DNA of 64,000 nt from Patescibacteria group bacterium (GCA_040390125.1 JAZJYZ010000001.1:374402-438401); one strand, 5' to 3'; positions 25,890 through 30,369 are shown, counted from the first letter of the stretch. Translations and numbers: made by a program. Notes: generated from the letters alone by a model not told the origin.

Positions 25890-25960
25890 TGGGGAATCGT
25901 CTAATGGTAGGACAGAGGCCTTTGAAGCCTTTAATTGGGGTTCGAATCCCTGTTCCCCAG
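25890..25960 (+). tRNA. tRNA-Gln (anticodon UUG)
   Basis: U1:A72 acceptor TGGGGAA/TTCCCCA; anticodon stem GAGGC/GCCTT with loop CTTTGAA; T-loop TTCGAAT; discriminator G; close to E. coli tRNA-Gln. Confidence 0.8.
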
Positions 25961-26147
25961 CAATGACATAAAACAGGCCACTCTATGTGGCTTTTGTTTT
26001 ATGTAATCATTGCGTGGGAAAGAAAGCGAATAGTTTCGCTTTCGTCAGGATTCGAAAAGCGGAGGTATACTTTTGTTTGTGCCTCACAAGGCAAAAGTAC
26101 CGAGCTGGGGTCGCGAGAAATTTCAGTCAAGAAATTTACTTGTGACC

Positions 26148-26162
26148 GAATCCCTGTTCCCC
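26148..26162 (+). repeat. att-like copy of the tRNA-Gln 3' end (gaatccctgttcccc)
   Basis: 15/15 identity to tRNA 25944-25958. Confidence 0.6.
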
Positions 26163-26189
26163 CTAGAAATCTTGGCTGTCTCCATTCCT

Positions 26190-26206
26190 GAATCCCTCTT
26201 CCTCAG
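26190..26206 (+). repeat. degenerate att-like copy (gaatccctcttcctcag)
   Basis: 15/17 identity to the tRNA 3' end. Confidence 0.45.
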
Positions 26207-26279
26207 TTAGTAGAGTTGGAGTTCTGGACGCCCCAAGAGCGTCATTTTAAATGCTATTATTTGTAGTAACTAAAGTGCT

Positions 26280-27665
26280 ATGCAAAAAAAGATAGCTTTT
26301 CTGAAGACCTCCGATTTAGTCTTGGACATTGATAATCCTAGATTTGGTGAACTTTATACGGGAAGTAATAAGGAAGAAGATCTCATAGAATATTTACTAT
26401 TCAACGAGTCGGCAATTACTTTAGTCGATCGACTAGCTTCAACAAAGGAATTCTATACAGATAAACCATTACTAGTTTTTGATAACGGTAAAAAGAAAAT
26501 AGTCAAAGATGGAAATAGAAGATGCGCCGCAGTGAAAGCTTTGCTGAACCCTACCAAATTCGGTATCACTTCTCCCGCATATAAAATTAAGGAGCTCCCG
26601 GTCGTTGTGTATACAAATAAAGCAGAAATAGATAAACGAATTATTGAAGAACATACCAACAGTATGTTCAGAGAATGGGACAGAATTGCAAAAGCAATTG
26701 AAGTTTATAGGCAGTTTGAATCTGGCTCCTCTATAGAATCCATGGAGGAGATTGACAGTAAGCCTGCGGATTTAATTAAATTAGCAAGTTTCTACTATGA
26801 AGCTGTAAAAATCGGAGGTGATGATTTGAAAAAGCTTCTGCGAAAAGGTAGGGGTGGTACTGGAGGAAAAACAACTATATTTGAAAGATTATTTAAATAC
26901 TCAAACGCTTGTGGTTATCGATTTAAAAATAAACCTGACTATGTTGTTGAAATAACCGATAACAAGAAGTTTAAAAGTTACATCAAAAAAGTAGTTGGGT
27001 ATTTGACGAAGAACCCTTCAACTACATATAGAGATGTTGATGAAAAGAACCCAAAGTTTTTTACAGAAATAGGCCTTTCCAATCTTGCTACTCAAAACTC
27101 TTCTGGATCATCTACGCCAACCACAGTAAGCACATCGCAAACAAAAGGCGCCGCTCTCGCCGCAGCATCAATTCCAAAACATACAAATAAAGCCCAACCT
27201 AAACCTGAGTACAATCGAACAATACCTGGGCCATTAAAAAAAGTTATTGACGAATGTTACGGACTAAACGAACTAACTTTTACTAATTCAAAAATTGCCA
27301 TGACCCGGGTGGTTTTTGAATGTTGTTTAAAATATATTGTGGAAGAAACGAAATATAACGGCATTCTTTTAAAAGATTACAGCTATTTTAATAATATTTT
27401 TCCAAATGGAACTCCAACAGGTAGAAAGTGGACAAATTTTACAAAATTAAAAAATTTGTTTGAGGAGCTAATAAAAAACGCGGGGAAAAAGCAAGCATTT
27501 AAGAGCTTTGATATAGAGATACCTCATCAAATAATTCATAACTACAATATTGCAGGTCTTGTGAAAGAGGCAAAAACTCTCTGTGACAACTTAATACCTC
27601 TAGTCGAATTCATGCTGGAAACAGAAGCCAACCTTCTAAATAGTATTGATACACAAAAATTATAG
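26280..27665 (+). CDS. ParB-like nuclease (ParBc/Srx-fold) domain protein with a large uncharacterised C-terminal region
   Basis: N-terminal LVLDIDNPRF and KDGNRRCAAVKAL (DGxxR ParB/DUF262-type motif); Ser/Thr/Pro linker; 461 aa; AT-rich. Confidence 0.5.
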   Translation: MQKKIAFLKTSDLVLDIDNPRFGELYTGSNKEEDLIEYLLFNESAITLVDRLASTKEFYTDKPLLVFDNGKKKIVKDGNRRCAAVKALLNPTKFGITSPAYKIKELPVVVYTNKAEIDKRIIEEHTNSMFREWDRIAKAIEVYRQFESGSSIESMEEIDSKPADLIKLASFYYEAVKIGGDDLKKLLRKGRGGTGGKTTIFERLFKYSNACGYRFKNKPDYVVEITDNKKFKSYIKKVVGYLTKNPSTTYRDVDEKNPKFFTEIGLSNLATQNSSGSSTPTTVSTSQTKGAALAAASIPKHTNKAQPKPEYNRTIPGPLKKVIDECYGLNELTFTNSKIAMTRVVFECCLKYIVEETKYNGILLKDYSYFNNIFPNGTPTGRKWTNFTKLKNLFEELIKNAGKKQAFKSFDIEIPHQIIHNYNIAGLVKEAKTLCDNLIPLVEFMLETEANLLNSIDTQKL

Positions 27666-27666
27666 T

Positions 27667-28530
27667 ATGACTTCAAGATTTTATTCACCACTACGTTATC
27701 CTGGAGGGAAAAATAAACTAGCAAAATTTGTAGCTTTGATATGTGAAAAAAATAATATTAATGGACACTATGTTGAGCCTTATGCAGGCGGAGCTTCTGT
27801 CGCTCTATATTTATTGCTAAATGGATATGTAAAAGAGGTCACAATTAATGATTATGATCGTGCAGTTTATGCTTTTTGGTATTCAATTTTGAATTATACA
27901 GAAGAGTTTTGTAAAAAAATATCTTCAACAGAGATAAATGTTGAAAATTGGAAAAAGTTTAAACAGGTTCATTTAAATAAAGAAAAAGCTCCTTTATTTG
28001 ATTTAGGATTTGCTACATTTTTTCTAAATCGTACAAATAGATCTGGAATTATAAACGGAGGAATTATTGGAGGGATCAATCAGCAAGGAGAATATAAAAT
28101 AGATTGTCGTTTCAATAAAGAAGAGTTGATTAAACGCATACGTTTAATTGAGAAGAATCGTGCCAATATACATCTATCTAAATTAGATGCGTTAGATCTT
28201 ATAACTAAAATCCAAAAAAATAAAGGAAATAAAAACACTATTTTCTATTTTGATCCACCTTATTACTTAAAAGGTCCTTCGCTATACATGAACCACTATA
28301 AGCATGAAGACCATAAAGCAGTAAGTGCAGAAATACAAAAAATAAAAAATACCAGATGGATTGTTTCTTATGACAATACTCCTGAGATTAAAAAATTGTA
28401 CTCGATTTCTAAGAAAAAAGAGTATACATTTTTTCATACTGCTTACGAAATAAGGGAAGGTAAAGAAATATTATTTTTTAGTAAAGGATTATCTATTCCT
28501 AGAGTGAGTCGACCAACCATGTTGGCTTAA
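27667..28530 (+). CDS. DNA adenine methyltransferase, Dam (D12 class, alpha group); alternative start at 27646 overlapping the upstream gene
   Basis: motif I LRYPGGK…EPYAGGAS, motif IV DPPY, FxNRxxRSG region. Confidence 0.85.
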   Translation: MTSRFYSPLRYPGGKNKLAKFVALICEKNNINGHYVEPYAGGASVALYLLLNGYVKEVTINDYDRAVYAFWYSILNYTEEFCKKISSTEINVENWKKFKQVHLNKEKAPLFDLGFATFFLNRTNRSGIINGGIIGGINQQGEYKIDCRFNKEELIKRIRLIEKNRANIHLSKLDALDLITKIQKNKGNKNTIFYFDPPYYLKGPSLYMNHYKHEDHKAVSAEIQKIKNTRWIVSYDNTPEIKKLYSISKKKEYTFFHTAYEIREGKEILFFSKGLSIPRVSRPTMLA

Positions 28531-28728
28531 TGTTGACTAGAGAGCTAGAAAAATTTCTTTGTTCTCAAAAATTAACGAGTTTTATTGATTAATTAAGATT
28601 CCAACTTCGTACCAAATTCCCAGTCAGTTTGAGATAGGTTCGGACTCCGAGGAGCATCCATTTTACTATTTACAAAGTTCATCCCATCTGACAGGGTTAA
28701 GAGGTGGTTTATTAGTTAAGAAAATAAA

Positions 28729-28941
28729 ATGGCAAAAACTTATCACTCAAAAGAAGAAATGATTAAACGAATGACTGAAGTTCAGAACGAACTGTCGATT
28801 TTGGCAAGTAAAGGCTCTCTCAGTGAAAATGGTTCAAGAACCGCTGACGAAGAGCTCAGGTTTCAAGAACTTTCTCAAGAACTATCTGCTCTCGATATGA
28901 CTCTTAAAGCTATGTCAGGGAACGGAGGTTCAGCCTTATAG
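28729..28941 (+). CDS. hypothetical small coiled-coil protein
   Basis: 70-aa ORF. Confidence 0.3.
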   Translation: MAKTYHSKEEMIKRMTEVQNELSILASKGSLSENGSRTADEELRFQELSQELSALDMTLKAMSGNGGSAL

Positions 28942-28942
28942 T

Positions 28943-29158
28943 ATGCGGAAGAATACATTTCTAATCATAATTGGCGTTATAATTGTTGGATCGGCTTTTT
29001 ATTGGTATTCATATCGTCCGTCACACATAAGGTCTCAATGTTTAGCAGAGGGAGAACTAAATCCAACTGCGATTGGTATTTCTGATGATGCCGCTAGAAC
29101 CAAATTTATAAATGACTACTACCAAACCTGCCTTCACAGATTCGGCTTGGATAAATAA
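28943..29158 (+). CDS. hypothetical small membrane-anchored protein
   Basis: 71 aa; N-terminal TM; 1-bp gap from the previous ORF. Confidence 0.3.
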   Translation: MRKNTFLIIIGVIIVGSAFYWYSYRPSHIRSQCLAEGELNPTAIGISDDAARTKFINDYYQTCLHRFGLDK

Positions 29159-29235
29159 TCATTTCGAGGAGCGTCAAAATATTAATCTTAAAAGCATCAG
29201 GGAGGGCTTGTGTGGGACTCGGTGGAGAATTATCT

Positions 29236-29253
29236 GAATCCCTGTTCCCCAGC
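29236..29253 (+). repeat. att-like copy of the tRNA-Gln 3' end (gaatccctgttccccagc)
   Basis: 18/18 identity to tRNA 25944-25961. Confidence 0.7.
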
Positions 29254-29368
29254 TGATTTTTAGGCGTAAAAATCATGTCGAAATTAGCAAATTTCGACCA
29301 GGTGGTTTTTGACATAGGTTCCCCCGCCCGAGACCCATGAATCAAGGTTTGACAAGAGAGTATCTGAA

Positions 29369-30340
29369 TTGTACGGTGAAAGAATTATGGTAGGCGAATC
29401 GTCTAAGGAAACCCGCTCCAAAGTCAGCCTGACGGGAATGGAAGATTGGAAGTGGACTGAGGCGGACGTTGATCACTGGTCTCGAGAGCAAAAACCCAAG
29501 CGCTCGTATCAGGACGAAGTTGTTGACAGAGTCTTAGAGCTGAGGGGCAGATTCGAAGTTCAGCAATACGGAGCACTCTCTCAGGATCCAAAGCGTTACC
29601 CACTCTACGTTTTAAGATCTCCAAATTTTTCTCCCGACAAAAAAACGATTCTGATCACGGGTGGTGTACACGGTTATGAGACCAGCGGTGTTCAGGGTGC
29701 GCTCGGATTTCTCGAGCGTGCGGCTGGACAGTTTGACGGAAAGTTTAATTTTGTGTGCGTGCCTTGTATCAGTCCCTGGGCGTACGAGACGATTAATCGT
29801 TGGAATGCGCAGGCATTTGACCCGAATCGTTGGTTCCGTGACGGGAGTCCGGTTGAGGAGTGTCAGCTTTTCTTGCGTGCGATGAAGGACGTCAAGCCCT
29901 TTGCGCATTTTGATCTTCACGAGACGACCGACACCGACAACAGCGTTTTCCGACCAGCGAAAGGCGAGCGGGATGGAAAGGTCGAGGAGTGGTCAGAGAT
30001 TCCCGACGGATTTTATGCCGTTGGCGATAGCAAGAATCCGCAGGCAGGTTTTCAGAAAGCTATCATCGAGTCGGTTAGGAAGGTAACCCACATCGCCAAA
30101 GCTGATGAAAATGGGAACATTATCGGAACTCCGCTCGAGCAAGAGGGAGTGGTCAACTATGATTTGAAGGAGCTCAATTTGTGCGCCGGCTTTTCAGACG
30201 CTGCATATACTACGACCACAGAAGTATATCCCAATAGCCCCGGGGTCACCGATGAGATCTGCATTGATGCTCAGATTGCCGCTATCGTGGGTGGCTTAAA
30301 CTATCTTTTGAAGCAGGAAGAATCCTCTGATGCACAGTGA
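29369..30340 (+). CDS. succinylglutamate desuccinylase/aspartoacylase (AstE/AspA, M14-like) family zinc hydrolase
   Basis: ITGGVHGYETSG (GGxHGxE) and HFDLHET metal-ligand motifs; 323 aa; noticeably GC-rich. Confidence 0.6.
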   Translation: MYGERIMVGESSKETRSKVSLTGMEDWKWTEADVDHWSREQKPKRSYQDEVVDRVLELRGRFEVQQYGALSQDPKRYPLYVLRSPNFSPDKKTILITGGVHGYETSGVQGALGFLERAAGQFDGKFNFVCVPCISPWAYETINRWNAQAFDPNRWFRDGSPVEECQLFLRAMKDVKPFAHFDLHETTDTDNSVFRPAKGERDGKVEEWSEIPDGFYAVGDSKNPQAGFQKAIIESVRKVTHIAKADENGNIIGTPLEQEGVVNYDLKELNLCAGFSDAAYTTTTEVYPNSPGVTDEICIDAQIAAIVGGLNYLLKQEESSDAQ

Positions 30341-30351
30341 GAGTGATGACC

Positions 30352-30369
30352 GAATCTCTGTTACCCAGC
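30352..30369 (+). repeat. degenerate att-like copy (gaatctctgttacccagc)
   Basis: 16/18 identity to the tRNA 3' end. Confidence 0.5.

Follow-up and report, generated by a model that had tools for sequence, protein, structure and literature searches.

A probable divergent PD-λ-5-type two-gene defense operon on an integrase-less tRNA-Gln islet in a Patescibacteria genome

Among described systems, the closest to the locus reported here is PD-λ-5 of Escherichia coli ECOR7 (RCQ13837.1/RCQ13838.1), for which Vassallo et al. (2022; PMC9519451) give the entry "ParB/HEPN, methyltransferase." It is an experimentally validated anti-phage system that gave protection against 9 of 10 phages, its cloning required a Δmrr host, and it was proposed to be a "compacted RM+Abi" (PMC9519451). 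The need for a Δmrr host implies that the ECOR7 methyltransferase is active and that its mark is not of the Dam type. Our literature searches found no published biochemical mechanism for PD-λ-5. ParB-HEPN fusions and the MAE_28990 HEPN/ParB/DNA-methylase operons had been noted in 2013, by comparative genomics only, and the Saro_3948 and MAE_28990 families were listed as retaining the motif Rx4-6H (Anantharaman et al., 2013; PMC3710099). The layout of a ParB-like domain and a HEPN domain is also that of DndB, which has been reported to be an ATP-modulated repressor.

We analyzed a window of 64,000 nucleotides (the whole stretch of DNA under study) from Patescibacteria group bacterium (GCA_040390125.1, JAZJYZ010000001.1:374402-438401), and all positions are counted from its first letter. 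We put at about 75% the probability that a gene pair in this window, here called genes A and B, is an intact, divergent PD-λ-5-type two-gene defense operon on a 3.3-kb integrase-less islet at a tRNA-Gln gene. The features of the islet are as follows.

25890-25961, + strand: tRNA-Gln (UUG; ttg), the integration target (ARAGORN; Rfam tRNA, 61.5 bits)
25944-25961, + strand: attL-like repeat, the last 18 nt of tRNA-Gln (GAATCCCTGTTCCCCAGC), from the repeat search
26148-26165 and 26190-26207, + strand: degenerate copies of the 18-mer with 3 mismatches each, from the repeat search
26227-26243, + strand: GC-rich hairpin followed by a T-run, terminator-like, 37 nt upstream of the start of A
26280-27665, + strand: gene A, ATG start, TAG stop at 27663-27665, 461 aa, intact
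27667-28530, + strand: gene B, ATG start, 287 aa, intact
28729-29158, + strand: two small ORFs of 70 and 71 aa, nearly abutting, between B and the right repeat
29236-29253, + strand: attR-like exact 18-nt repeat of the tRNA-Gln 3' end, the right border of the 3.3-kb islet with A and B

A first-pass annotation of the DNA had described an AT-rich two-gene operon with coupled stop and start codons, and this description held: both reading frames are intact where it had placed them, with a 1-nt spacer between the stop of A and the start of B. An alternative TTG start of B at 27646 is possible, and the homologs use ATG. The four motifs that it had quoted were all located in the translations, LVLDIDNPRF and KDGNRRCAAVKAL in A, and LRYPGGK and DPPY (28252-28263) in B. 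The pair is also more AT-rich than its flanks, as had been stated, with a GC content of 0.28–0.36 over 26250-28750 vs. 0.42–0.47 on either side.

As in ECOR7, a ParB/HEPN gene is followed by a gene for a D12-class adenine methyltransferase in the same orientation and in one operon, the operon measures 2.25 kb here and 2.46 kb in ECOR7, and in both cases it lies on a mobile element. Nothing at the locus departs from the PD-λ-5 layout. The two differ in that the host is a member of the Patescibacteria, the location is a tRNA islet and not a P2-like prophage hotspot, and the clade of A is known from sequence alone. Protein A is only ~20–24% identical to canonical PD-λ-5_A, and has a Gly-rich loop (residues 188–198) and an HxxxHN motif of its own. 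The architecture of a ParB/HEPN protein with a methyltransferase was already known, and what is new here is a divergent, poorly recognized clade of PD-λ-5_A.

The placement of the pair inside a tRNA-Gln islet, also proposed in the first-pass annotation, is borne out by the exact 18-nt tRNA-end repeats at 25944 and 29236 that flank it. With a third degenerate copy at 30352, five matches to the 18-mer were observed vs. 0.01 expected, and these repeats indicate that a 3.3-kb insertion at the tRNA carries the pair and forms part of a tandem series of att-like scars; the degenerate copies at 26148 and 26190 are probably scars of earlier insertions. The drop in GC content and the att-like repeats are signs of horizontal acquisition. 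Because a search of metagenomes for the empty site, in which the tRNA-Gln end would be joined to the right flank, gave no match, we infer the insertion from repeats and composition only. The element contains no integrase gene, and the ORFs in 25962-30369 are A, B, the two small ORFs, and an AstE/AspA-like gene. The small ORFs, the second of which (71 aa) has a hydrophobic N-terminus, had no Pfam match and were not found beside other A-B pairs, which places them outside the conserved module. The hairpin at 26227-26243 may be what remains of a terminator, or may have a regulatory role. An Rfam scan of the islet detected the tRNA only, and a promoter scan gave fewer promoter-like sites than in shuffled sequence. 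The region 25944-30369 of the window has the form of a composite insertion hotspot, in which the five 18-mer copies bound at least three segments; the last of these (29254-30369) has only one gene, at 29369-30340, which is GC-rich (0.52) and gives a weak AstE/AspA-like match.

Protein B matched the Pfam family MethyltransfD12 (E = 1e-17, 65 bits vs. a cut-off of 22) and, over residues 4–282, the PADLOC model PD-Lambda-5_B (PDLC04018; profile positions 3–280 of 291, E = 7.4e-120). These profile matches assign B to the PD-λ-5_B family of D12-class N6-adenine DNA methyltransferases. The earlier reading of B as a canonical Dam methyltransferase was an overstatement, as the score against the curated Dam model TIGR00571 was 51.3 bits vs. 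a cut-off of 114.85.

Protein A, a hypothetical protein in NCBI (V4449_02350), had no significant match in Pfam or NCBIfam. It matched 21 PD-Lambda-5_A models of PADLOC (best E = 7e-11); unlike canonical PD-λ-5, however, it is recognized by the standard models only in its first ~100 residues, to which nearly all of these matches are confined, with one spanning residues 10–292. Homology over the whole length was derived from a profile search, bridging sequences, and a paralog with 24% identity, and not from a direct model match. When a profile of the A family was compared with 1.84 billion representative sequences, 1,554 matches were obtained at E ≤ 1e-3, the distant full-length relatives among them were strong members of PD-Lambda-5_A (E = 1e-50 to 1e-100), and two sequences, P0160 and P0164, bridged the group of A and the PD-Lambda-5_A group. 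In a Sphingobacteriia locus (L001) with the arrangement A'-B-A, the ortholog of A (P0017) is 71% identical to A, and the paralog A' aligns with P0017 along the entire length (24% identity, E = 1e-15) and covers positions 5–464 of 466 of the model PDLC03998 (E = 4.6e-48). In an alignment of 21 sequences with ~20% identity, residues L15, D16, N19, R21, G78-N79-R80-R81, K86, H125, W133, R203, R343, and H420 were invariant and N421 was nearly so, and every domain retained invariant residues. By these comparisons, A is linked through intermediates to PD-Lambda-5_A by full-length homology, and represents a divergent clade of it.

The subfamily of A comprises 373 word-indexed homologs with 45–78% identity, from Patescibacteria, Bacteroidota, Omnitrophota, Rickettsiaceae, and other groups. 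Every member is labeled hypothetical and none has a precomputed Pfam match, and no member was found in the viral contigs of IMG/VR. One homolog, P0026 (63% identical to A), lies on a 12.5-kb contig and is deposited under the rotifer Didymodactylos carnosus; it represents either bacterial contamination or horizontal transfer.

We collected 22 genome loci of A homologs, 21 of which were assessable. Gene B directly followed A in 19 of the 21 and directly preceded it in one (A'-B-A); in the remaining locus, from Roseivirga, a second A paralog lies between A and B (hhalign probability 99.9%, E = 4e-31). It had been suggested that a defense unit would be doubtful if the two genes stood apart in homologous loci; instead, they were adjacent in 20 of the 21 assessable loci, across phyla, and were tightly coupled: in 20 related loci the stop-to-start spacing ranges from −4 to +8 nt. 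Two PD-λ-5_A paralogs with a single methyltransferase occur as A'-B-A in Sphingobacteriia (L001/L008, 3747-7377) and as A-A''-B in Roseivirga (L016, 5968-9772). This arrangement suggests that specificity comes from B or the methyl mark and not from A; a shared methyltransferase is hard to reconcile with A having a sequence specificity of its own.

Proximity to tRNA genes recurs among the A-B pairs. In a metagenome-assembled Parcubacteria genome (L010, 8318-9796), two 97%-identical copies of tRNA-His lie directly downstream of the pair, and in L016 a tRNA-Thr lies ~1 kb upstream of A. No att-like repeats were found around these two tRNA-adjacent pairs.

The domains of A were delimited as follows, with the aid of an AlphaFold2 model of the full-length protein (mean pLDDT 79.7).

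26280-26615, + strand: residues 1–112, N-terminal domain of ParB/Srx fold (Foldseek, N-terminal PADLOC matches, invariant residues)
26511-26522, + strand: residues 78–81, GNRR, invariant in the superfamily
26616-27092, + strand: residues 113–271, helical middle domain, aligning with the central (HTH) region of ParB/Noc/KorB
27093-27191, + strand: residues 272–304, disordered S/T/P/A-rich linker (pLDDT < 50, alignment gaps)
27192-27662, + strand: residues 305–461, HEPN-fold domain (R343 at 27306-27308, H420-N421 at 27537-27542)

A sequence profile of the A family gave no match in the PDB at E ≤ 10, and folds were compared instead. The top Foldseek matches in the PDB were CTP-bound ParB, Noc, and KorB (263–285 columns, E = 8e-5 to 7e-4, 14–16% identity), and their extent indicates that residues 1 to ~270 of A resemble the N-terminal and central helical domains of ParB. 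Sulfiredoxin matched the core fold of the N-terminal domain. The invariant residues of this domain are L15, D16, N19, R21, G78-N79-R80-R81, and K86, and those of the middle domain are H125, W133, and R203. The GNRR of A is an intact motif of the phosphate-binding type; box II of ParB reads GERRxRAAK, which the GNRRxAAxKA of A resembles. Other members of the superfamily gave weak Pfam matches to HTH, ParB_N, GmrSD_N, and DndB. The label "ParB nuclease domain" given in the first-pass annotation was therefore apt for the ParB/Srx fold; as for the nuclease part, the fold comes closest to ParB, Noc, and KorB, which bind CTP. Since this domain is closer to CTP-switch proteins than to known nucleases, it is only a putative nuclease.

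In the middle domain, the Gly-rich basic loop RGRGxTGGKT (residues 188–198, 26841-26873) is nearly invariant in the subfamily of A and absent from canonical PD-λ-5_A. We considered a Walker A motif and rejected it, because the spacing is Gx5GKT and the loop lies between two helices in the model.

The low-complexity S/T/P linker reported earlier corresponds to residues 272–304, and its length varies from 20 to 100 aa among the homologs. The part left without an assignment was not ~250 aa, as had been proposed, and consists of ~157 aa (residues 305–461), residues 113–270 going with the ParB-like part. Profile and structure searches, which the same annotation had recommended, placed the family in PD-λ-5_A and this C-terminal domain in the HEPN (RNase-type) fold, with the four-helix up-down arrangement that defines it. 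Its conserved residues are R343 on an early helix and the pair H420-N421. The canonical Rx4-6H motif is missing, there being no R 4–6 residues before H420 (FDIEIPHQIIHNYN), and so the domain is only a putative RNase. In RnlA and LsoA, too, the R/E pair that is used lies on an earlier helix, and by analogy the site in A may still be catalytic.

These domains also define the relation of A to the other systems. Like those compiled in 2013, the locus combines a ParB fold and a HEPN domain with a DNA methylase in an RM-like setting; it differs from the Saro_3948 and MAE_28990 families, compared by description only, in that the HEPN domain of A lacks Rx4-6H. Like DndB, A joins a ParB-like N-terminal domain to a HEPN domain, with weak sequence similarity near GNRR; unlike DndB, it has DGNRR instead of DGQHR and its partner is a methyltransferase. 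The fold of its N-terminal and central helical domains is that of ParB, Noc, and KorB, which are CTP-dependent DNA clamps, whereas it has only 14–16% identity to them, no C-terminal dimerization domain, no ParA, and no known parS. As in type II and III restriction-modification (R-M), a methyltransferase is translationally coupled to a putative DNA-targeting partner, and self would be discriminated from non-self by methylation. Unlike those systems, the pair contains no PD-(D/E)xK, HNH, GIY-YIG, or PLD nuclease and no helicase, and the candidate effectors are instead the ParB/Srx and HEPN folds.

The proposal of an atypical RM-like defense module agrees with membership in PD-λ-5, which is validated against phages in E. 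coli. The architecture was said not to be a textbook R-M type; it is indeed atypical, although not uncatalogued, since reports of the fusions and operons date from 2013 and the description of PD-λ-5 from 2022. Nothing was found in support of the anti-restriction function that had been offered as an alternative.

The locus is best read as an RM-like system that is gated by methylation and has a HEPN effector. In such a system, B would methylate a short motif in host DNA, and A, perhaps in a complex with B, would bind DNA through its ParB-like part and be triggered by unmethylated incoming DNA or by a loss of methylation. As for the output, the ParB-fold domain might cleave DNA or act in an NTP-dependent manner, the HEPN domain might cut RNA by means of R343 and H420, or both might act together. 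RNA cleavage by the HEPN domain would combine restriction with an abortive-infection effect, in keeping with the "compacted RM+Abi" of Vassallo et al. (2022). The tight translational coupling would ensure that A is never made without the protective methyltransferase.

A more specific version, which we regard as speculative and rather doubtful, is that the ParB half of A is not a nuclease and acts, in the manner of ParB, Noc, and KorB, as a CTP/ATP-gated DNA clamp or switch that loads on DNA, reads the methylation by B, and allosterically releases a non-canonical HEPN effector. B would then possibly serve as the specificity subunit of A. If the methyltransferase supplies the specificity, a single B could accept different A paralogs, which is the situation in the A'-B-A and A-A''-B loci. 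If this is true, PD-λ-5 would be an immune sensor based on a ParB clamp, a mechanism that to our knowledge is not described for any defense system.

Three other explanations were weighed and are less well supported than defense. The pair could be a selfish, toxin-antitoxin-like addiction module, in which a toxic A is held in check by the methylation by B, so that the islet is stabilized by the consequences of segregational loss and phage defense is secondary or absent here. Small RM-like modules, such as type II R-M, are known as addiction modules; no A without a neighboring methyltransferase was seen in the loci examined, and the islet persists although it has no integrase. However, the homologous E. 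coli system gives broad phage protection, and we consider addiction as the explanation unlikely, although addiction and defense are compatible rather than mutually exclusive.

That A is instead a DndB-like or controller regulator, an NTP-modulated DNA-binding protein of ParB fold that tunes an orphan methyltransferase for epigenetic regulation, appears quite improbable to us. This idea draws on the ParB-like and HEPN layout of the ATP-modulated repressor DndB, on a weak match of A to Pfam DndB (E = 0.03), and on the HTH-type Pfam matches of other superfamily members. However, the DndB score of 13.8 bits is below the cut-off of 29.1, the islet has no dnd genes, and the putative catalytic residues of both domains are invariant across sequences with ~20% identity. 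Moreover, the two genes alone confer defense in E. coli, and so the effector must be one of them. We give very little credence to a partition- or packaging-type ParB accompanied by a phage methyltransferase, left over from a mobile element and without a role in defense. ParB, Noc, and KorB are indeed the top structural matches, and phage ParB-terminase-methylase loci linked to packaging have been described. The first-pass annotation had regarded a match to a plasmid ParB or KorB as an argument against defense; such a match exists at the level of the fold only (14–16% identity). It leaves the defense reading standing, because no ParA was found among the neighbors, the C-terminal dimerization domain of ParB is absent, with a HEPN domain in its place, and A had no match to Pfam ParB_N at E ≤ 1. 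Terminase is also absent, the subfamily of A occurs in no viral contig, and the locus belongs to PD-λ-5.

These results extend PD-λ-5, a system that is validated yet mechanistically unexplained, into Patescibacteria and many other phyla through a highly conserved and previously unannotated clade. Beyond its first ~100 residues this clade escapes the standard defense-finder models, and current counts of such loci may thus be too low. The domain map and the superfamily-invariant residues provide positions for mutation (D16, N19, R21, G78-N79-R80-R81, H125, R343, and H420-N421), and the loci with two sensors and one methyltransferase, together with the ParB-CTPase-like fold, give testable hints on how self is distinguished from non-self.

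Temperate phages also carry the methyltransferase clade of B (45–47% identical), next to their integrases. Its partner in the P2-like Vibrio phage ValB1MD-2 (L007, 1946-3498) is a PD-λ-5_A in two pieces, the ParB half and the HEPN half being separate ORFs with a 4-nt overlap, perhaps through a frameshift or perhaps because the protein is truly split. Citrobacter phage phiNP and Streptococcus prophages (L005, 1631-4340; L006, 1711-4346) have a methyltransferase of this clade beside an integrase, coupled to a PtuA/AriA/AbiLi-like ABC/AAA ATPase of ~570–600 aa, which suggests a methyltransferase with exchangeable effector partners.
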